Below are positions 249 to 21,239 of a stretch of 30,413 nucleotides of DNA, piece after piece (the first letter of the stretch is position 1; the number at the start of each line of letters is the position of its first letter). This stretch comes from an uncultured Clostridia bacterium (GTDB taxonomy: Bacteria; Bacillota; Clostridia; Oscillospirales; CAG-272). The position numbers and the translations under genes were made by a program. The notes beneath the pieces are model-generated. The model saw only the letters and a program-made list of their open reading frames with translations. It was not told where the DNA came from and ran no database searches. The stretch covers positions 1 to 30,413 of the forward strand of contig CAMZBE010000001.1 of the NCBI GenBank assembly GCA_947304475.1. Reading direction: 5' to 3'.

Positions 249-1793
249 ATGCCCGATTTTGTCTGGTACATCATCGTGGCGGTCGCCGCGCTCGCCGTCG
301 GCGGACTTGCCACCTATCTGTTCTTAAAAAAGAGCGGCGAAGCAAAACTCGCCTCCGCAGAAGCAGAAGCGAAAAAGATCCTGGAAACGGCGCTCCGCAC
401 CGCCGAAACGCGGAAGAAAGAGTCGCTGCTCGAAGCGAAAGAAGAAGTTCTTCGCTTGAAGAACGACGCGGACGCCGAGATCAAGGACCGCAGACGCGAG
501 ATCTCGCGGCAGGAACACCGGCTCGCCCAGAAAGAGGAGAATCTGGACGGCAAACTCGAAAGGATGGAGAAAAAGGAGGTCGCCCTTCAGCAGAAATACA
601 AGGAAGCGGAAGATAAGATCGCGGAGATCACCGCGCTGAAGGAGACCGAGACCGTCAAACTGGAGAAGATCTCCGGTATGACGAGCGACGAAGCCAAGCG
701 CGAACTGCTTGACAAACTCTCGGGAGAACTGCAGCACGAAACCGCCCTGAAACTCTCCGAGTACGAGGCGCAATTCCGCGAAGAAGCCGACGCGAAGGCA
801 AAGGATATCCTCTCGCTCGCGATCCAGCGCTGCGCCGCCGATCACGTCAGCGAGGTCGCCATCTCGGTCGTCTCGCTTCCCAACGAGGACATGAAGGGGC
901 GGATCATCGGCCGCGAAGGCCGGAACATCCGCACCATCGAAACCCTGACCGGCGTGGAACTGATCATCGACGACACCCCCGAGGTCATCACGATCTCCGG
1001 GTTCGATCCCGTCCGGCGCGAGATTGCACGGCTCGCGCTCGAGAAACTGATCGCAGACGGGCGGATCCACCCCGCGCGTATTGAAGAAATGGTGGAAAAG
1101 GCGCAGCGCGACGTCGAACAGTCGATCAAGCAGGCGGGCGAAAAAGCCGTCTTCGAGACCGGCGTTCACGGGCTGAACCCCGAACTGGTCAAACTGCTCG
1201 GCCGCCTGAAATACCGGACGAGTTACGGACAGAACGTCCTGCGTCACTCGATCGAGGTCTCGCTGCTCTCCGGCATCATGGCGGACGAACTCGGCGTGGA
1301 CTCCACGCTCGCGAAACGCGCCGGTCTGCTCCACGATATCGGTAAGGCGCTGACCGCCGAGATCGAGGGCTCGCACGTCGGGCTGGGCGTGGACGTCGCG
1401 AAGAAGTACCACGAGAGCAAGGACGTGATCCACGCGATCGAGGCGCACCACGGCGACGTCGAGGCGAAGTCCATCGTCGCCCTGCTGGTGCAGGCGGCGG
1501 ACGCCATCTCGGCGGCTCGGCCGGGCGCACGGCGCGAGAACGTCGAGAACTATATCAAGCGTCTGCAGAAACTCGAGGAGATCAGTTCCGAGTTCAACGG
1601 CGTCGAGAAGTCCTTCGCCATTCAGGCGGGCCGCGAAGTCCGCGTGATCGTCAAACCCGAAATGATCGGCGACGACGAGATGAAACTGCTCGCCCACGAC
1701 ATCGCCAAAAAGATCGAGGGCGAACTCGAATACCCCGGTCAGATCAAGGTGAACGTGATCCGGGAGAGCCGCTACACCGACTACGCGAAATAA
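249..1793 (+). CDS. rny: Ribonuclease Y (514 aa)
   Basis: N-terminal TM helix, coiled coil, KH domain ([14 protein letters not shown]) and HD domain (LLHDIGK). Start moved to ATG 249, behind an AAGGA RBS. Confidence 0.97.
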
Positions 1794-1875: not shown

Positions 1876-2658
1876 ATGCTTCGTGTTTTGGTGCTCGGCG
1901 ACGTGCTGTCGCCGGCAACGGTCGGCTTTCTCTGCCGTCGGCTTTGGAGTTTCCGGCGTGAAAACAGGGTGGATTTTGCAGTCGTGAACGGCGAGAACGC
2001 CGGGTTCTTGTCCGGGATCGGATCGAAGGACGCCGCGCTGTTGCTTGAGGGCGGCGCCGACTGCATCACCGGCGGGAACCACACCATGGCGGCAAAGTCG
2101 ATTTACCAGACGCTCGAGTCGTCCGACCGGGTGCTGCGCCCGATCAACCTCGCCGACGGCGTACCGGGCGCGGGCTACACGATCCTGCCGGCGCGCGATC
2201 GCCGGATCCTGGTCTTTTCGGCGCTCGGCTGCCTGTTCATGGAGGCGGGGACGCCCGATCCGGTGCCCTATATCGAACGGGTGCTCGCCCGTGAAAAGGG
2301 GCGCTACGACCTCTCGGTCCTCGACCTGCACGCCGAGGCGACCGGCGAAAAGATCGCCGCCGCGTTCCGCCTGGACGGAAAGATCTCGGCGATCTTCGGG
2401 ACGCATACGCACGTACCGACCGCCGACGAGACCGTTCTGCCGATGGGCACCGGCTATATCTCCGACGTCGGCTTCTGCGGCCGTACCGGCGGCGTCCTCG
2501 GCGTAAAAACCGAGGTGATGACCGCCCGACAGAAGACGCGGCTCCGCTATTCCTACGCCGAGGCGGAAGGTTCGTTCCGCGCCCAGGGCGCGCTCTTTGA
2601 TCTGGATGAGGCGACCGGGAAAACCCTTGCGGTGCGCCGCGTCGAATTCGGTGAATGA
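1876..2658 (+). CDS. ymdB: YmdB/TIGR00282-family metallophosphoesterase (260 aa)
   Basis: Motifs GD, NGEN, GNH, DLHAEATGEK and GTHTHVPTAD. Canonical position after rny. GGAGG RBS at 1866-1870 precedes ATG 1876. Confidence 0.92.
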   Translation: MLRVLVLGDVLSPATVGFLCRRLWSFRRENRVDFAVVNGENAGFLSGIGSKDAALLLEGGADCITGGNHTMAAKSIYQTLESSDRVLRPINLADGVPGAGYTILPARDRRILVFSALGCLFMEAGTPDPVPYIERVLAREKGRYDLSVLDLHAEATGEKIAAAFRLDGKISAIFGTHTHVPTADETVLPMGTGYISDVGFCGRTGGVLGVKTEVMTARQKTRLRYSYAEAEGSFRAQGALFDLDEATGKTLAVRRVEFGE

Positions 2659-2681
2659 CAATAGACCTGCGAGGTAACGGG

Positions 2682-5600
2682 ATGCTTTACAAAAAGAACC
2701 GGGAAAAGACGCTCTCGCCCGAACTGTTCCGCGCGCCGACCAGCGAGTACCGCGGCACGCCCTTTTGGGCGTGGAACTGCCGTCTGGAAAAAGAGGAACT
2801 GCTCCGGCAACTCGACGTCATGAAAGAGATGGGCTTCGGCGGTGCGCATATGCACGTCCGCACCGGGCTGGACACCCCCTACCTCTCCGACGAGTTCTTC
2901 GATATGATCGGGGCGTGCATCGACAAATCCGAAAAAGAAGGGATGCTCGCCTGGCTCTACGACGAGGATCGCTGGCCGTCGGGTGCCGCGGGCGGAATCG
3001 TGACCAAGGACGAACGCTTCCGCCAACGCACCCTTTTGTTTACAAAAACCCCCTATCAAGAGGGGGAAGACGGCGGGGGGCTGACCTCTTCGAGTGCCGT
3101 GGCGACGCGAACCGGGAACGGAAAACTGCTTGCCCGCTACGCCGTCCGGCTGAACGGGCGGGGCGAGTTGGCGTCCTACCGGAGGCTGCGGCACGGCGAG
3201 CCAGACGAGGCGCAGGCGGGCGAAGAGATCCGCTATGCCTACCTTGAAACGCCGCGCGAAAATCCCTGGTTCAATAACGAGACCTACCTGAACACCCTCG
3301 ATCCGAAGGCGGTCGCCCGTTTTATCGAGGTGACGCACGAGAGTTACCGCCGTCGCTTCGCGAAGTCCTTCGGGAACGTCGTTCCCGCGATCTTCACCGA
3401 CGAGCCGCAGTTCACGCGCAAGACCGTGCTGCCCTACGCCAAGAGCGACCGCGACGTGACGCTTCCCTTCTCGGACGATCTGGAAGAGACCTTTGCCGCC
3501 GCCTACGGCGCGTCTCTTCTCGACCACCTGCCTGAATTGATCTGGGAACTCCCCGAGGGGGTGTCGAGGATCCGCTATCTCTATCACGACCACGTCGCCG
3601 AACGCTTCTCTTCCGCGTTTGCCGACCAAATCGGCGCGTGGTGCGAGAAAAACGGCTTGATGCTGACCGGGCACATGATGGAAGAACCGACCTTGCGAAG
3701 TCAGACCGCCGCGCTCGGCGAGGCGATGCGCTCCTACCGCTCCTTCCAGTTGCCCGGGATCGATATGCTGCTCGCCCGCCACGAATTTACGACGGCGAAG
3801 CAGGCGCAGTCCGCCGTGCACCAATACGGACGCGAAGGCATGATCAGCGAACTGTACGGCGTGACCGGTTGGGATTACGATTTCCGCGGGCACAAACTGC
3901 ACGGCGACTGGCAAGCCGCGCTGGGCGTGACCGTCCGCGTCCCGCATCTGGCGTGGGTGTCGATGAAGGGCGAGGCAAAACGCGATTACCCCGCCTCGAT
4001 CAACTATCAGTCCCCGTGGTATAAGGAATACCGCGCCGTGGAAGACCACTTCGCGCGCGTCGCCACGGCGTTGACGCGCGGTAAACCGCTGGTGCGCGTG
4101 GGCGTGATCCACCCGGTCGAAAGTTACTGGCTCCACTGGGGCCCCGCCGAGCAGACCGCCGCGATCCGCGAAAAACTCGAGAAACGCTTCTCGTCTCTTG
4201 TCGACTGGCTGCTCTTCGGAACGGTGGATTTCGACTTTATCTCCGAATCGCTCTTCCCATCGCTCTGCCCGGACGCGGACGCGCCGCTCCCGGTCGGAGA
4301 GATGCGCTACGACGTCGTGATCGTTCCGGGCTGTGAAACCCTGCGTTCGACCACGCTCGACCGGCTCGAAACCTTCCGCAAGAAGGGCGGGCGCCTGCTC
4401 TTTCTCGGCGAGGCGCCGCTCTATGAGAACGCTCTGCCGTCCTCGCGCGGGCGGGAACTGTGGGCGTCTTCGGAGGTCGTTTCGTTTGAAAAATGCGATC
4501 TGCTCGCCGCCCTGGAGCCCGTGCGCGAGATCGAGGTGCGCGACGCGTCGGGTTCGCTCTCCGACCGCCTGCTCTCCCAACTTCGTATCGACAGGGACTG
4601 CCGCTGGCTGTTCCTCTCTCAGGGCAGAGATCCCTACAACAAAGACGTTTCGACGCACTCCGACGTGACGGTGACGGTCAACGGGCGCTTCCGCCCCGTC
4701 CTCTACGACACCGAAACCGGAGAGATCTCCCCGCTCCCCTATACGCTCGACGGAAACAAAACGGTTTTCGTCCGCCGCTTCTACGATTGCGACAGTCTGC
4801 TCGTAAAACTGACGCCCGAAGACGGTGCTGCCGCCGGGCAGAACGCGGCGCCCTCGCCGACGAAGCGCGCCGACGTCAACTTCCCCGACACGGTCCCGTA
4901 TTCGCTCTCGGAACCCAACGCGCTGGTGCTCGACTATGCCGAGTACGCCCTTGACCGGGGCGAATTCCGTCCGAAGACCGAGATCCTGCGCATCGACACC
5001 CTGCTCCGCCGCGAACTCGGCTGGCTGAAGGGCGATCGGTGGGACGCCCTGGGTTCGACCGCGCAGCCGTGGGTGCTGCCGCCCGAGATCCCGACGCATA
5101 TCGTTACGCTCCGCTATACGGTTTTGTCCGACGTGGATCTTTCCGCCGTTACCCTTGCGCTCGAGGACGCCGACGTGGCGACCATCGAGTGGAACGGTGC
5201 CCCGGTCGACCGGAAACCGGAGGGGTTTTACGTGGATCGGTGCATTCAATGCGTCTCTTTGCCCGCCGTGAAACGCGGCGTCAATTCGCTGGTCGTAACG
5301 CTGCCCTACGCGAAACGCGTGTCGCTCGAGCGGATGTATCTGCTCGGGGAGTTCGGCGTGGACGTGAACGGGCAGGAGATCAGGTTGGTCGGGAAACGGG
5401 AAAAGGTCGGGTTCGACGATATTACCCGGCTCGGGTTCCCGTTCTTTTCGGGCGCGTTCCGGTATGAGATCCCGTTTGCGTCAAACGGCGAAGAGGTCAC
5501 GCTCACCGTTCCGCATTATCGCGGGGCGCTCGTCACGGCGGAACTCGACGGGAAACCGATCGGGCGGGTGATCTATCCCCCCTACCGGCTTTCGCTCGGT

Positions 5601-5804
5601 GCGCCCGCTGCGGGAACGCATACCCTGACGCTCTCGCTCTTCGTCTCGCGCCAGAACGGCTTCGGCCCCCTGCATAACGCCGACGAGTTCCACCGCGTCA
5701 CCCCCGCAGCCTGGCGTTCGGGCGACGATAAGTGGACCGATTCGTACCGCTTGACAAGAGAAGGAATACTAACCAAACCGATCCTGACCGAAGAGGAAGG
5801 GTAA
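2682..5804 (+). CDS. Large glycoside hydrolase, GH106 (alpha-L-rhamnosidase)-like, no signal peptide (1040 aa)
   Basis: N-terminal PFWAWN...GFGG...WLYDEDRWPSG pattern, FTDEP, SELYG, HLAWVSMKGEAKRDYP, and a C-terminal beta-sandwich region. GAGG RBS at 2671 favours ATG 2682; the ORF is open from 2655. Substrate is not certain. Confidence 0.75.
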   Translation: MLYKKNREKTLSPELFRAPTSEYRGTPFWAWNCRLEKEELLRQLDVMKEMGFGGAHMHVRTGLDTPYLSDEFFDMIGACIDKSEKEGMLAWLYDEDRWPSGAAGGIVTKDERFRQRTLLFTKTPYQEGEDGGGLTSSSAVATRTGNGKLLARYAVRLNGRGELASYRRLRHGEPDEAQAGEEIRYAYLETPRENPWFNNETYLNTLDPKAVARFIEVTHESYRRRFAKSFGNVVPAIFTDEPQFTRKTVLPYAKSDRDVTLPFSDDLEETFAAAYGASLLDHLPELIWELPEGVSRIRYLYHDHVAERFSSAFADQIGAWCEKNGLMLTGHMMEEPTLRSQTAALGEAMRSYRSFQLPGIDMLLARHEFTTAKQAQSAVHQYGREGMISELYGVTGWDYDFRGHKLHGDWQAALGVTVRVPHLAWVSMKGEAKRDYPASINYQSPWYKEYRAVEDHFARVATALTRGKPLVRVGVIHPVESYWLHWGPAEQTAAIREKLEKRFSSLVDWLLFGTVDFDFISESLFPSLCPDADAPLPVGEMRYDVVIVPGCETLRSTTLDRLETFRKKGGRLLFLGEAPLYENALPSSRGRELWASSEVVSFEKCDLLAALEPVREIEVRDASGSLSDRLLSQLRIDRDCRWLFLSQGRDPYNKDVSTHSDVTVTVNGRFRPVLYDTETGEISPLPYTLDGNKTVFVRRFYDCDSLLVKLTPEDGAAAGQNAAPSPTKRADVNFPDTVPYSLSEPNALVLDYAEYALDRGEFRPKTEILRIDTLLRRELGWLKGDRWDALGSTAQPWVLPPEIPTHIVTLRYTVLSDVDLSAVTLALEDADVATIEWNGAPVDRKPEGFYVDRCIQCVSLPAVKRGVNSLVVTLPYAKRVSLERMYLLGEFGVDVNGQEIRLVGKREKVGFDDITRLGFPFFSGAFRYEIPFASNGEEVTLTVPHYRGALVTAELDGKPIGRVIYPPYRLSLGAPAAGTHTLTLSLFVSRQNGFGPLHNADEFHRVTPAAWRSGDDKWTDSYRLTREGILTKPILTEEEG

Positions 5805-5963
5805 GGTCCGGCTGCAACGGACGCAGGAGGAGATTTTCTCTGCGCTTTCTTGTAAGAAAGCGCCCAAAGAACTTCATTATGGGAATATGATAAAGCAAAA
5901 CGGCGTTGCGACGCCGTTTTGCGGTTCTATAGCCTATACCTCGGTTATTATCTTTCCAACGCG

Positions 5964-5990
5964 CGGGGCGTCGAAGACGCCGCCCCCCAC
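5964..5990 (-). repeat. REP-like unit: GTGG foot plus GC-rich imperfect palindrome
   Basis: Minus strand reads GTGGGGGGCGGCGTCTTCGACGCCCCG, fitting the GT(A/G)G-plus-hairpin REP architecture. Confidence 0.45.
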
Positions 5991-6022
5991 GAAGATCGGC
6001 TTTGCCTTTGGCAATCTTTCAC

Positions 6023-6135
6023 GTCGCGCTTGCGCGACAATTCATGCAAACGCAGTTTGCAATTCATGACGGCGTCGCCGTCAATTCACGCGATCGGAGA
6101 TCGCAATTCATGCCGTTGCGATCCGTCGCAACGGC
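6023..6135. repeat. 22-nt-period array: constant AATTCA(T/C) linker between sequence-variable hairpins
   Basis: AATTCA at 6039, 6061, 6083 and 6105. The three internal units are different perfect 6-bp stems with 3-nt loops. Flanking stems are 7 bp (6023-6038) and 10 bp (6112-6135). Confidence 0.85.
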
Positions 6136-6179
6136 TTCCCTTTGTTTCCTTCTCGCCGCCCGCAGGGCGCCGGAAGAAA

Positions 6180-6334
6180 GTTATGAGTTGCGCTGCGGCG
6201 CAACGTTCAGAGTTATGAGAATACCGCCCGACGTGGGCGGCATTCGTTATGAGCAAACCGCGCCGTTGGGCGCGGTCTGCGTTTTGTTCTACCGAAAGCA
6301 AAGAGAACCGTGACGGTTGTGTTTTTGAAACCGC
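6180..6334 (+). repeat. GTTATGAG-hairpin module, copy 1 of a dispersed repeat
   Basis: GTTATGAG at 6180, 6212 and 6246, each followed by a different hairpin. Similar to 21083-21207. Confidence 0.8.
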
Positions 6335-6464
6335 GCACACGAAGAATGAGTGCGCGCTAACTTCATTCCCTAATGAAGTTCTTTGCTCCACTTTCTTACA
6401 AGAAAGTGGACGTACCTCTCGTTTCTCTCCCCCCCGGGGGGCGGTGTTGAAAAATTCTTTGTTT

Positions 6465-7184
6465 TCAGTCGATTTTGAGTTTTTTTATTCTTCTCTTTGC
6501 CCTGCCGACGTCGCGGAGCATCCGGCGGGTATCGCGGAAGAAACGAATGGTGGACGGGCGGTGATTGACGATCTTCACGGGGAGTTCTCCGAAGACGAAA
6601 CCGCACTTCTGCCCGATCTTGATCGCTTCGTAATCGAAGGCGAAACGGTCGACCTCACAGAGCGAAAAGATCTTTTTCGCCGCGGCGCGGCGGAACCCTT
6701 TCAATCCGGTCTGCGAGTCCGAAAGCGACAGTCCGCCCCAGAACCGGAGCAGGGACAGATAGGTTTTCGAGACGATCTTCCGGGCAAAGGAATAGCCGGC
6801 GTACCCTTCGGGGTGCTTGACGCGGGAACCGACCACGGCGTCGAACTCGGGGTGTTCGTCGAAGAGGTTGACCATCTCGGCAACGACGTCCAGTCCGTAG
6901 GCAAGATCGCAGTCGGTAAAAATGATATAATCGCCCTCTCCCGCAAGCATTCCCTGCCGGACGGCGCAGCCCTTGCCGCGGTTGGGTTGGTAGGAAAGAT
7001 ACCGGACGGGACCGGTACAGAGTTCGTCCAGGATTGCTTTGGAACGGTCGGTCGAGCCGTCGTCTACAAAAATAACCTCGTACTGACCGGGAAACGCGGC
7101 TTCCATATAGGACGAAACGGCGCCGATCGTTTCGCGCAGGATCGTCTCTTCGTTATAGAGCGGGATAACGAGCGTAACTTTCAT
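6465..7184 (-). CDS. GT2-family glycosyltransferase, polyprenol-phosphate glycosyltransferase (DPM/DPG-synthase)-like (239 aa)
   Basis: VIPLYNE, VDDGSTD, NRGKG, FTDCD (DxD), DSQTGLKGF and FAFDYE motifs. Confidence 0.88.
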   Translation of the reverse strand: MKVTLVIPLYNEETILRETIGAVSSYMEAAFPGQYEVIFVDDGSTDRSKAILDELCTGPVRYLSYQPNRGKGCAVRQGMLAGEGDYIIFTDCDLAYGLDVVAEMVNLFDEHPEFDAVVGSRVKHPEGYAGYSFARKIVSKTYLSLLRFWGGLSLSDSQTGLKGFRRAAAKKIFSLCEVDRFAFDYEAIKIGQKCGFVFGELPVKIVNHRPSTIRFFRDTRRMLRDVGRAKRRIKKLKID

Positions 7185-7312: not shown

Positions 7313-7394
7313 AGAATATAAACATTTTTTAATAAAGTATAAATTATAGTACGCGCGAAGACGACGGCTGATGCCGAAGGGAAAGGAACGCCCG

Positions 7395-8807
7395 ATGGAT
7401 ACGTTGAAAGATATTGGTTCGGCGGTGCTCGAACAACTGAAACAGAAGTTCACGCCCACCATCTACGAACTGTGGTTTAAGAGTTTACAGTTGGTCTCGC
7501 TTGACGGTGACGTCGCGGTCTTTTCGACCGACAGCAACTTTAAGCAGGATCTGATCAGCAAGCGCCACGTCGGCTCGATCCGGGACGCGCTCCGCGAGGT
7601 GGTCGGCTTCGACGTGAAGGTTATCATCGAGTCGCGGGAAGGGAGCGAAGGGTTCCACATTCCGGAAATTGAAGACAAGCCCGAAGAAAAGAAGACCGTG
7701 CCGCTTCTGCCCGACGATCCCGAACCCAAAACCATTGATCCCGAGTCCGCGATCGAGAGCAGTTCGATCGTCGACGAATACACCTTCGAGAACTTTATCG
7801 AAGGGGAGTCCAACCGCTTCGCGCTTGCCGCCTGCCGCGCGGTCGCGCTCTATTCGAGTTCTCCCGACAAGAACGACGAGATGGACGTTTCGACCTACAA
7901 TCCCCTGTTCATCTACGGTCCGAGCGGCGTCGGCAAAACGCACCTGCTTTTCGCGGTGACAAACGAGATCAAGCGTAAGAACCCGAAGTGCAAAATCGTC
8001 TATAAAAAGAGTGAAGAGTTTACAAACGAACTGATCGCCAGTCTGCAGAACGGTACGCAGGACCGGTTTCGTCAGCATTACCGCAACGCCGACGTGCTGC
8101 TGATCGACGACGTGCAGTTCATCGCCGGCAAAGAATCGACGCAAGAAGAGTTCTTCCACACTTTCTCCGCTCTCTACGAGAACGGCAAACAGATTATTCT
8201 GACCTCCGACCGTCCGCCGAAGGACATCAAGACGCTGGAGGACCGTCTGCTCACCCGGTTCATCTGGGGACTGCTCGCCGACATTCAGCCGCCGAGTTTT
8301 GAACTTCGCACCGCCATCATCAATAAAAAAGCGGAAAACCTGAAAATCTCGATCCCGAGCGAGGTAGTCGAATATCTGGCGACCAAACTCCAGAACAATA
8401 TCCGCCAAATTGAAGGATCCATCAAGCGGATCGCCGCCATCAGTCTTCTGACCGGATCCCCCATCACAACCGATCTTTGTCGCCGCGCGATCTCGGACAT
8501 TCTTTCGGGCAACGAGCCGGTGGACGTCACGGTCGACCGGATCATCACGCTGGTTTCCAAGCGGCTGAATATCCCGGTCGAGGACATCCGGGCAAAACGC
8601 AGAACGGCAAACGTCGTCAACGCCCGTCATATCTGTATTTACATGATCCGTCAACTCTCCGACGTCTCGTTCAATACTCTGGGCGAGATTTTCGAGCGAG
8701 ATCACGCGACCATCATGGCGGCTTTCCGGAAGGTGGAAGCGGCGATTGCCGCAGATCCCGAATTTGCCGCGCTCGTCAACGGCATGATGGACGAGATACG
8801 GAACTGA
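7395..8807 (+). CDS. dnaA: Chromosomal replication initiator DnaA (470 aa)
   Basis: YTFENFIEGESNRFA, Walker A GPSGVGKT, LLIDDVQF, TQEEFFHTF, IRQIEG, and domain IV RDH. GAAAGGA RBS precedes ATG 7395. Confidence 0.98.
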   Translation: MDTLKDIGSAVLEQLKQKFTPTIYELWFKSLQLVSLDGDVAVFSTDSNFKQDLISKRHVGSIRDALREVVGFDVKVIIESREGSEGFHIPEIEDKPEEKKTVPLLPDDPEPKTIDPESAIESSSIVDEYTFENFIEGESNRFALAACRAVALYSSSPDKNDEMDVSTYNPLFIYGPSGVGKTHLLFAVTNEIKRKNPKCKIVYKKSEEFTNELIASLQNGTQDRFRQHYRNADVLLIDDVQFIAGKESTQEEFFHTFSALYENGKQIILTSDRPPKDIKTLEDRLLTRFIWGLLADIQPPSFELRTAIINKKAENLKISIPSEVVEYLATKLQNNIRQIEGSIKRIAAISLLTGSPITTDLCRRAISDILSGNEPVDVTVDRIITLVSKRLNIPVEDIRAKRRTANVVNARHICIYMIRQLSDVSFNTLGEIFERDHATIMAAFRKVEAAIAADPEFAALVNGMMDEIRN

Positions 8808-13746: not shown

Positions 13747-16353
13747 ATGGAAAGAAAACCGAATAATATCGAAGATATTTCCTTCCCGGAGCAGAAGATC
13801 CTCGGGCGCAATATGGAGAAGGAACTCAAGACGGCGTTCATCGAGTATTCGATGAGCGTCATCACGAGCCGTGCCCTGCCCGACGTCCGCGACGGAATGA
13901 AACCCGGTCAGCGCCGCATCCTTTACGCGATGTACGAGGATCACCTGACCTACGACAAACCCTTCCGGAAATCCGCGACCACGGTCGGTAACGTGCTGGG
14001 GCGCTATCATCCCCACGGGGACGCCGCGGTCTATCAGACCATGGTCAGAATGGCGCAGTCCTTCTCGCTCCGCTATCCCCTGATCGAGGGGCACGGCAAC
14101 TTCGGCAACGTCGACGGCGACGGCGCAGCCGCCTACCGGTATACCGAGGCGAGAATGAGCAAACTCGCCGACCAGATGATGTCGGATATCGAGAAGAACG
14201 TCGTCAACTTCCTCCCGAACTTCGACAACTCGCGCAAGGAGCCCGAAGTGCTTCCCTCGCGCTTCCCCAACCTGCTGGTCAACGGTTCGGTCGGTATCGC
14301 CGTCGGTATGGCGACCAACATCCCCCCGCACAACCTGCGCGAGGTGGTGGACGGGATCGTGTTCCGTATGGACAATCCCGAATGCACCGTTCCCGAACTG
14401 ATGGAGTATATCAAGGGGCCGGACTTCCCGACCGCCGGGATCGTGTACGGCTCGCGCGGGATGCTCGACGCGTATTCGACCGGGCGCGGAAAGGTCATCG
14501 TCCGGGCGCGCGCGCGCATCGAGGACGAGCAGCACCGGATCATCGTGACCGAGATCCCCTACGCCGTCAACAAGAGCCAACTCGTCGAGGCGATCGCCAA
14601 CCTCGTCAAGGACAAGAAGATCGAGGGGATCACCGATCTGCGCGACGAGTCGGGCAGAGACGGTATGCGCATCGTCATCGAGTATCGCCGCGACGCGAAC
14701 GGCGAGGTCATTCTGAACCAACTCTATAAGTACAGTCAGTTGCAGGACACCTTCGCCGTCAATATGCTGATGCTGGTCAACGGCGAACCGAAGATCCTGT
14801 CGCTTCCCGAGATCCTCGACCAGTATATCCTGTTCCAGGAAGGCATCATCGTCCGCCGGACGCAGTTCGACCTCGACCGCGCGCTGAAGGAGATGCACAT
14901 TTACGAGGGATATAAGATCGCGATCGACCACATCGACGAGATCATCAAGATCATCAAGGCGAGTTCCTCGATCCCCGACGCGAAGACCAACCTGATGGAA
15001 CGCTATGGTCTCTCCGATCCGCAGGCGCAGGCGATCGTCGAAATGACGCTCGGCAAACTGTCCGGACTGGAACGCCAGAAGGTGGAAGACCGGCTTCTCA
15101 AACTCGAAGAGACGGTCGCCGATCTGCAGGCGATCCTCGCCGACGACGGCAGAGTGCGCGAGATCGTCAAGGGCGAGTTGATCTCGATGAAAGAGAAGTT
15201 CGGCGACGACAGACGCACCGAACTGGTCGAGGCGACCGACGATATCGACATCGAAGACCTGATTCCGCGTCACACCTGCGTTCTCACCGTCACGACCGGC
15301 GGCTACATCAAGCGGCAGCCCGCCGATACCTACTCTTCGCAGCATCGCGGCGGCAAGGGCATTATCGGAATGGGACACAAGGAAGAGGACGACGTGGTCG
15401 ACGTGATCGTCGCGAACAGCCATGCGCTCCTGATGTTCTTCACCAACAAGGGACGCGTTTATACCAAGAAGACCTACCGGATCCCCGAGGCGGGACGTAC
15501 CGCGAAGGGGACGAACATGGTCAACATCCTCGACCTGACCGAAGGCGAGAGCGTTACCGCCATCATCTCGATCGACGCCTTCACTGAGGGCGAGTACCTG
15601 ACGATGGTGACCAAGAAGGGCGTCATCAAGAAGACGCCGACCAAGGACTTCGAGTACCAGAGACGCTCGGGCAAGATCGCGATCACCCTCGACGAGGGCG
15701 ACGACCTGCTCTTCGTCCGCAAGACCAAGGGCAACGACGACCTGATCCTCGCGACGCGCGGAGGCAGCGCGACCAGGTTCAGCGAAACCACCGTCCGTCC
15801 GATGGGACGCGGGGCGCGCGGCGTGCGCGGCATCCGGCTGACCGGCGACGACTACGTGATCGGTGTGGCGCTGGTCGAGGAAGGCAAGCAACTGCTTACC
15901 ATTACCGACCGCGGATTTGGGAAACGCACCGAATTCGACGACTTCCGCGTGCTGAAGAACCGCGGCGGACAGGGCGTCACGGCGCACAACCTGAACGACA
16001 AGACCGGCAACCTCGCCGCGATCGCTGCGGTGTCGGAAACCGACGATATCATGATGATTACCAACGACGGGACCATCATCCGGATCCCGGTCGCGGGCAT
16101 CCCCGTCTACTCGCGTTCGGCGGGCGGCGTGATCGTGATGCGGCTCTCCGAAGGAGCGGCGATCGTCAACCTGTCGCGTATCGAGCCGCAGGAAGAACTT
16201 GATCAGGAGATCACCGCCGACGAAACGGCGGAGCACCCCGAACTCTCTGAGGACGGCGAGCCGGACGAAGCGGCAGAGGAGGAAAAACCTGCGTCCGATG
16301 CCGACGAAGGGGACGAAACCGACGGCGAAGCCGAAGAAAATGAAGAGATCTGA
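13747..16353 (+). CDS. gyrA: DNA gyrase subunit A (868 aa)
   Basis: [18 protein letters not shown], catalytic AAAYRYTE, GyrA-box QHRGGKG, beta-pinwheel repeats and an acidic tail. Confidence 0.97.
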
Positions 16354-21082: not shown

Positions 21083-21207
21083 GTTATGAGTTGCGCCGAG
21101 GCGCAACGTCCAGAACGATGAGAATGCCGCCCGTTTTCGGGCGGCATTCGTTTTTTTTGTTATACCGCGGGCAAAGAGAACCGCGGCGCCCGCGTTTTTG
21201 AAACCGC
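21083..21207 (+). repeat. GTTATGAG-hairpin module, copy 2
   Basis: Hand alignment: 21083-21133 vs 6180-6230 is 44/51 identical; 21139-21152 equals 6235-6248; 21155-21207 vs 6282-6334 is 43/53 identical. Lacks the third hairpin of copy 1. Confidence 0.8.
21122..21158 (+). terminator. Intrinsic terminator formed inside repeat copy 2
   Basis: Perfect 12-bp stem 21122-21133/21138-21149 followed by G and 8 T. Confidence 0.8.
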
Positions 21208-21239
21208 ACGGGCGCTTCGGCCTCTCGTCCTTCCCCATT

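Follow-up and report, generated by a model that had tools for sequence, protein, structure and literature searches.

A previously undescribed family of hairpin repeats, the T-unit, in a spacer between converging genes of an uncultured Oscillospirales bacterium

Introduction

The spacer at positions 5805-6464 of a metagenome-assembled genome (MAG) from an uncultured Clostridia bacterium (Oscillospirales, CAG-272; assembly GCA_947304475.1) is so crowded with hairpins that it raises a simple question: is it a single element, with ends, a middle and an enzyme that moves it, or does it merely resemble one? The original prediction, made from the window (the whole 30,413-nt stretch analyzed here, from contig CAMZBE010000001.1), was of a noncoding cassette of about 570 bp bounded by ~45-bp terminal inverted repeats (TIRs) and spread by an enzyme of the HUH (RAYT/IS200-like) kind encoded elsewhere. 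In the current study, we asked what the ends and the middle of this block are, where else they occur, and which known repeat systems they resemble.

Results

The TAA stop codon of the upstream gene occupies 5802-5804, and a codon-usage gene caller placed no gene between 5804 and 6465, in agreement with the earlier statement that the hairpin DNA has no credible open reading frame (ORF); the 60- to 103-aa ORFs listed in the spacer are unsupported by that caller. More than 12 stems had been claimed; in 5805-6464 we counted 14 hairpins with perfect stems of 6 bp or more, versus 1.3 ± 1.1 expected (200 shuffles; maximum, 5). The folding z-scores of the spacer against shuffles were -10.0 for the + strand and -13.3 for the - strand. 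The inverted ends are real: 5845-5860 pairs with 6391-6406 (16 nt, 100%) and 5865-5882 with 6368-6385 (18 nt, 94%), and the palindromes at the two ends (5842-5863 and 6387-6410) differ in their outer bases, which are nonetheless complementary. The predicted 12-bp stem (5895-5922), the REP-like hairpin headed by GTGG (5963-5990), four copies of AATTCA (at 6039, 6061, 6083 and 6105) and three of the fixed linker GTTATGAG (at 6180, 6212 and 6246) were all located. As had also been stated, the 570-bp block lacks a flanking direct repeat, and no transposase lies near the hairpin DNA. The whole window yielded no relevant Rfam match at gathering score; the scan was repeated at E <= 10, and the best score within 5700-6600 was 18 bits, compared with cut-offs of 39 to 70 bits for the listed hits. 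The features of the locus are collected in Table 1.

Table 1. Features of the spacer and its flanking genes, with related hairpins elsewhere in the source genome (parts of the right T-unit are in + strand coordinates)
Feature	Position	Strand	Basis
Upstream gene, 1049 aa, without Pfam match	2655..5804	+	ORF listing, codon-usage caller
Left T-unit, A-type, sense to upstream gene	5824..6016	+	covariance model, 84.9 bits
Left T-unit leader	5824-5841	+	alignment of copies
Left T-unit HP1	5842-5863	+	alignment of copies
Left T-unit linker CCAAAGAACTTCATTA	5864-5879	+	alignment of copies
Left T-unit HP2	5895-5922	+	alignment of copies
Left T-unit GGTTCTATAG	5923-5932	+	alignment of copies
REP-like G hairpin nested in left T-unit	5963..5990	-	GTGG head, then GC-rich imperfect palindrome
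Left T-unit 3' box CTTTGCCTTTGGCAATC	6000-6016	+	alignment of copies
Five-hairpin array, AATTCA(T/C) joints, 22-nt period	6020..6135	+	hairpin scan, contig comparison
Single GC-rich hairpin, CTTCT...AGAAG arms	6149..6180	+	fold
Three hairpins, each headed by GTTATGAG	6180..6280	+	hairpin scan
Right T-unit, B-type, sense to glycosyltransferase gene	6292..6435	-	covariance model, 83.9 bits
Right T-unit 3' box	6292-6308	-	
Right T-unit small hairpin	6306-6318	-	
Right T-unit GGTTTCAAAAAC	6321-6332	-	
Right T-unit HP2	6332-6356	-	
Right T-unit hairpin a	6359-6380	-	
Right T-unit linker	6371-6386	-	
Right T-unit HP1	6387-6410	-	
Right T-unit leader	6411-6435	-	
Family-2 glycosyltransferase gene, convergent with upstream gene	6465..7184	-	codon-usage caller
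HP1-loop hairpins in source genome	C4:~15160-15200; C71:~5790-5830; C195:~280-320		

The "terminal inverted repeats" of the cassette are two copies of one repeat, which we have named the T-unit. It is ~130 to 190 nt long and consists, in order, of a purine-rich leader, a first hairpin (HP1), the linker GCAAAGAACTTCA, a second hairpin (HP2), either GGTTCTATAG (A-type) or GGTTTCAAAAAC (B-type), and a 3' box, CTTTGCTTTTGG, which can fold back and pair with the linker; most of the unit lies between the arms of an internal inverted repeat, GCAAAGAAC...GTTCTTTGC. The leader is made of one to four tandem 10-mers (RGGGKTACGA), and its ACG-to-ACG spacing peaks at 10 nt. HP1 has 4 to 5 variable outer pairs around an invariant CTTTCTT/AAGAAAG, giving the pattern N4-5 CTTTCTT-NN-AAGAAAG N'4-5 followed by GCAAAGAACTTCA; its inner stem is AT rich, and neither HP1 nor the T-unit carries a GT(A/G)G head. 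The linker is invariant and in many copies is followed by a small hairpin, and HP2 is a covarying hairpin of variable sequence. A coding reading of the T-unit was rejected because neither a frame nor a start is conserved and no ORF can accommodate the TTGTAA and TTGAAA variants of the loop, as was a promoter reading of HP1 and the linker, in which both the spacing and the -10 element were poor on inspection; a promoter scan found none there. At 6429-6441, beside the leader of the right T-unit and near the glycosyltransferase stop codon, lies a C7G6 palindrome (CCCCCCCGGGGGG).

T-units keep their Watson-Crick hairpins by compensatory change. Across 59 units from five species, 98% of cells were paired, and double-change cells numbered 141, versus 42 ± 8.5 in shuffles; one-sided changes were scarce (8 cells versus 141 two-sided), and the signal collapsed once the partners were slid. 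A covariance model (R1), one of the checks that had been proposed, was built, and both T-units of the spacer were scored with it (Table 1).

An nhmmer profile search of the source genome (1.53 Mb in 266 contigs, 83% complete, 59% GC) found ~35 T-unit copies, mostly single, many of them at contig ends of the MAG assembly. As had been anticipated, the hairpin DNA proved to be multicopy in its own genome, with covarying stems. For the cassette itself, the copy-number search gave a divided answer: both ends are highly repeated, but the whole 570-bp block is unique, no second copy having been found in the source genome. The T-units follow a clear position rule. By the codon-usage caller, 29 of 34 have a same-strand gene upstream (one-sided binomial, about 2e-5), and a cruder stop-to-stop ORF test gave a same-strand upstream ORF for 34 of 35; the distance from the upstream stop codon is mostly 10 to 60 nt. 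At the locus studied here, the left leader lies 19 nt beyond the TAA, and 56 nt separate the glycosyltransferase stop codon from HP1 of the right T-unit. T-units occupy the stretch between stop codon and terminator, usually preceding the gene's own terminator hairpin. The next gene is convergent for 16 of 24 T-units, versus 34% genome-wide. All five inverted T-unit pairs (contigs C1, C46, C48, C71 and C97) lie between converging genes, and orientation therefore follows the gene, not the direction of replication. The upstream genes have no common function; they include those for a class-I (W/Y) tRNA synthetase, GerA, FeoB, BipA, MatE, a Mg-chelatase/ChlI-family protein, a type IA topoisomerase and an aquaporin. 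The ends of the block are independent T-units, a repeat found mostly by itself, and each is oriented with its gene; reading them as the termini of one composite element is not supported. dnaA (7371-8807, followed by more + strand genes) is ~900 nt from the hairpin spacer, which places the mosaic near a probable replication origin region; despite this, an oriC-related array was rejected, T-units being present at ~35 unrelated loci.

In the spacer as a whole, small hairpin repeats of at least four families are piled up between converging genes, and the internal modules, too, are separate repeat families with distributions of their own. The REP-like G hairpin, whose head on the opposite strand is GTAG or GTGG depending on the copy, has ~16 intergenic copies in the source genome, including three inverted doublets 84 nt apart, and it also occurs in cultured Vescimonas fastidiosa within a BIME-like cluster. 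On pMM35_01 of V. fastidiosa MM35 (L261:1180-1950), the G hairpin of window 5963-5990 is found in an intergenic cluster of ~900 nt, in which GC-rich palindromes headed by GTAGGGG alternate in orientation. AATTCA-spaced hairpin arrays number 12 in the source genome and are also found in many same-genus genomes without T-units, as well as in another family; the array block at 6020-6135 is near-identical on contigs C109 and C195. Elsewhere, AATTCA/TGAATT arrays form inverted pairs after terminators (L011:1490-1670, L014:1430-1800, L018:1410-1580 and C44:1150-1370 of the source genome), with varying stems and a constant 7- to 8-nt linker, in many same-genus genomes and in one low-GC genome of another family. 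The GTTATGAG hairpins form yet another repeat family, and the third of them (6257-6276), with its T-rich tail, is terminator-like for the + strand gene. The left ~300 nt of the block recurs on C109 and C195, with right halves that are unrelated; of the two paralogues, that on C109 has the nested G hairpin and that on C195 lacks it.

Orthologous loci tell the same parts apart. In two sister species (L033 and L127, the latter in genome G214), the T-unit after each gene is retained, and the middle is unrelated or nearly empty, one locus having just one terminator hairpin there and the other a set of unrelated hairpins; this, again, is at odds with one composite element. The right T-unit of L127 is A-type, not B-type. 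The orthologue of the upstream gene was not found in five same-genus genomes, and the empty-site test was therefore run at bipA. The 3' end of bipA is filled by a T-unit in the source genome and in G214 and is without one in G267 (99.6% amino-acid identity) and in eight same-genus genomes (G220, G004, G010, G013, G014, G016, G008 and G017). The T-unit block begins directly after the bipA stop codon, and no target-site duplication is visible at the filled and empty junctions (one clean pair, at base resolution). Further sites are empty in the source genome and filled in relatives, so that the search for empty sites called for earlier did return both states in near-identical relatives, albeit for T-units. 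Internally deleted T-unit relics occur at ~21100-21230 of the window and at C2:4654. T-units are gained and lost as discrete blocks.

Two of these sites have details of their own. Downstream of bipA, G220 (contig C21; L184) carries a different tandem hairpin repeat, GGGAACCCCCAACGC...GCGTCGGGGAACCCCTATCAC, in three copies. The relic in the window (21083-21230), which follows a - strand gene ending near 21229, keeps the leader, GGTTTCAAAAAC and the 3' box, lacks HP1, the linker and the first HP2 arm, and is followed by GTTATGAG-type hairpins; the orthologous site in G220 (L128) holds a full T-unit.

Because 53 of the 68 T-units of relatives share their position with the source genome, most copies must be old and vertically inherited. 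Shared positions fit retained function too. Orthologous T-units are 71% identical, versus 80% for the adjacent coding sequence, and so diverge faster.

Scanning with R1 covered 150 sampled same-genus genomes, only 4 of which gave strong matches, and 120 genomes of the family, of which 18 gave matches. T-units occur in Clostridia of the gut and rumen. The HP1-linker core has a much wider distribution than the full T-unit, the downstream parts being lineage specific, and a 35-nt core is conserved across families; core-bearing MAGs are labeled Oscillospiraceae, Acutalibacteraceae, Flemingiibacterium, Ruminococcus and Lachnospiraceae, among others. The core is multicopy in other Oscillospirales, including a cultured isolate: we counted 27 cores in Pseudoflavonifractor phocaeensis, and two MAGs had 30 and 69, versus 0 for the reversed pattern. 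In these other lineages, 32 of 45 cores lie at most 120 nt after a same-strand ORF (8 of 45 in a mirror control). In P. phocaeensis (G285, L241-L260), a small hairpin stands directly after the core, and in many copies a terminator-like module, GTGGGAGTGACG...CGTCGCTCCCAC with a T-run, comes next; this is a lineage-specific payload on the common core.

The original prediction recognized no named family here, and we likewise found none: the repeat matches neither an Rfam family nor a paper in the literature searched. An Rfam scan of 18 core-bearing loci from other lineages returned only tRNAs, and a full-text search of the literature for core sequences gave nothing but chance matches to primers. 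No family of the T-unit kind appears in general reviews of repeats, the literature yielded no described interspersed-repeat family for gut or rumen Oscillospirales, and plasmid and phage collections contained no T-unit, only the G hairpin.

The signals that might tell DNA from RNA do not all point the same way. T-units fold equally well on both strands (sense, -39.5 kcal/mol; antisense, -39.6 kcal/mol; sense more stable in 40 of 82), and G-U pairs amount to 2.3% on both. The sense T-unit has no U-tract; A-type HP2 does have one in antisense (5922-5895, then TTTATCATAT), and it is terminator-like only when read in that direction. In the sister genome G214, five of the six visible ends of an unassembled insertion sequence (IS) abut an HP1 half, placing the IS in the HP1 loop (CTTTCTTG^TAAGAAAG), and a ~33-nt GC hairpin occupies the same loop position in three T-units of the source genome (Table 1); HP1 looks like an insertion hotspot. 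The TIR of the G214 IS (contig ends L232-L237) is ~26 bp, CTTGCACTTGTATTG(AC/TA)AATCCAAG, and in a metagenome scan for this IS end the sole hit was a chance match within a large ORF. That the palindromes matter as DNA is suggested by their strand symmetry, the 10-nt period of the leader, the IS located in the loop and the loop hairpins. The gene-sense rule points to transcription instead.

The proposal that an HUH enzyme mobilizes the hairpins was not borne out. No Y1/RAYT transposase (PF01797) was found in the source genome (83% complete) or in the four sister carriers G214, G220, G234 and G267 (81 to 97% complete), in a search that did detect the control genomes. The sole Y1 transposase on the Vescimonas replicon is an ordinary IS200-like tnpA, unflanked by these REP-like hairpins. 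When the ORFs of 112 core-bearing loci were clustered, no transposase family recurred beside the cores, only housekeeping families. We found no IS with ends matching the T-unit; the only IS end seen, that of G214, has TIRs unrelated to the T-unit and sits inside HP1 without having ends in common with it. Core pairs 1.5 to 2 kb apart (L025, L095) were considered as candidate autonomous copies and rejected, for they enclose no transposase.

Discussion

T-units share features with several known repeat systems, and yet they fail the defining tests for REP/RAYT elements, for MITEs and for a single BOX-type composite. Like the REP/BIME/REPIN repeats described by Nunvar et al. (2010; PMC2817692), the repeats of this spacer are extragenic, multicopy, GC-rich imperfect palindromes with compensatory changes that form mosaic clusters at gene 3' ends without target-site duplication. 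However, the GT(A/G)G head of REPs is found on the nested G hairpin only (which also forms inverted doublets), not on HP1 or the T-unit, and the RAYT gene that two inverted REPs would flank was not found in the five carrier genomes. The T-unit is ~4 to 5 times longer than a REP, multihairpin, strictly gene-sense and adjacent to the stop codon, and its core is common to several families, whereas classical REPs are species specific. Copies number in the tens (~16 G hairpins, ~35 T-units), not over 100 or in the hundreds as for REPs, and, where REP clusters alternate in orientation, the G hairpins here include three inverted doublets and T-units pair only at convergent genes.

The BOX and SPRITE repeats described by Croucher et al. 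(2011; PMC3049150) are likewise composite, modular hairpin repeats of Firmicutes, with pairing end modules around a variable middle, and are overrepresented between convergent genes. By description, however, BOX is one element that moves as a unit, while the two end modules here are independent units. SPRITE repeats are found near the 3' ends of coding sequences, possibly as terminators (PMC3049150); T-units share this location. The SPRITE type has a long stem and then a U-rich tract; the T-unit has no U-tract in sense, and A-type HP2 has one in antisense. T-units resemble MITEs (PMC3184786, PMC10969869) in being small, noncoding, highly base paired and polymorphic in presence or absence, and in having an internal inverted repeat around most of the unit; they differ in being GC rich and in that neither a target-site duplication (in the one clean filled/empty pair) nor a parent IS was found, and nothing in MITEs corresponds to the rule by which T-units are placed and oriented with respect to genes.

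We conclude that the T-unit is a new, previously undescribed BIME/BOX-like interspersed-repeat family, and on balance we favor the view that the spacer is a mosaic of small interspersed palindromic repeats, comparable to enterobacterial BIME mosaics or pneumococcal BOX elements. In it, each end T-unit sits right behind the stop codon of the gene it belongs to and is oriented with that gene, and unrelated mini-repeats (the nested REP-like hairpin, the AATTCA array and the GTTATGAG hairpins) lie between the two. T-units may then be nonautonomous DNA repeats that spread by copying or through an enzyme encoded elsewhere, and their strand-symmetric palindromes suggest that they would be recognized as DNA hairpins. 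T-units should be cotranscribed with the upstream gene and hence probably serve as 3' hairpin barriers or helpers of the terminator, the role proposed for REP, BOX and SPRITE repeats. Several of our results count against a mosaic of mobile repeats: no RAYT, nearby transposase or IS with matching ends was found; most T-units of relatives occupy shared positions; repeats that were purely selfish DNA would not usually keep so strictly to the sense of the gene and to the neighborhood of its stop codon; and the 35-nt core crosses family lines, as species-specific REPs do not.

An alternative that we regard as doubtful, though it deserves to be taken seriously, is that T-units are host-beneficial, cis-acting 3'-untranslated region (3'-UTR) RNA modules read by a conserved factor, with roles in mRNA 3'-end protection or processing, as an aid to termination, or in posttermination ribosome handling. 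Their multicopy state would then reflect recruitment by many genes rather than selfish spread. The gene-sense, post-stop position holds in distant lineages with other payloads as well, the HP1-linker core is invariant across many genera, the position is conserved among sister species, and T-units usually stand ahead of the gene's own terminator hairpin, all of which speaks for such a module. Against this, T-units bear no RNA-specific signature, both strands folding equally and G-U pairs being rare, and the 10-nt period of the leader suggests DNA rather than RNA. They are also dispensable, since close relatives have empty sites and decayed copies where the orthologous T-units would lie; they were not found in most same-genus genomes; and they diverge faster than the adjacent coding sequence.

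A broader and somewhat improbable suggestion is that the HP1-linker core, with the tandem G-rich 10-mers ahead of it, marks an order-wide Oscillospirales system, either a conserved post-stop signal read by a host factor or a new kind of mobile DNA hairpin element whose insertion is guided by transcription. In the latter case, insertion might occur, for example, into nontemplate single-stranded DNA exposed after translation and transcription uncouple past the stop codon. Transcription-guided insertion would account at once for the orientation with the gene, the location next to the stop codon and the strand symmetry of the DNA-type palindromes.

The block as one ~570-bp nonautonomous element with ~45-bp TIRs, moved by a RAYT/IS200-like HUH enzyme, is now largely refuted and very unlikely. 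Its ends are indeed inverted repeats, and one internal hairpin has the REP-like GTGG/GTAG head and occurs elsewhere as inverted doublets; nevertheless, nothing beyond the left ~300 nt recurs, the T-units that form the ends mostly occur alone, orthologous loci do not conserve the middle, and the PF01797 searches of the five carrier genomes and the context of the Vescimonas Y1 gene speak against the enzyme. A single gene for a large structured noncoding RNA, comparable to ROOL, GOLLD or OLE and closed where its two ends pair, is less credible still, for although the predicted fold does join the ends in a long closing stem with an extreme z-score, there is no Rfam match even at E = 10, the interior is not conserved between orthologous loci, the halves belong to opposite gene ends, and both strands fold equally well.

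Oscillospirales are abundant in the gut and rumen, most of them have not been cultured, and a repeat family of theirs is now defined by a covariance model, a census and positional rules. T-unit repeats have practical consequences: they break MAG assemblies, inflate structured-RNA predictions and create false "TIR-bounded elements" wherever genes converge. The combination of a gene-sense, stop-adjacent rule with perfect, DNA-like palindromes is an unusual mechanistic puzzle, and it is directly testable, since cultured Pseudoflavonifractor phocaeensis carries the core in many copies. If it is true that a conserved factor or a new enzyme reads the core, T-units would represent a new layer of 3'-end biology or a new mode of mobile-DNA targeting.
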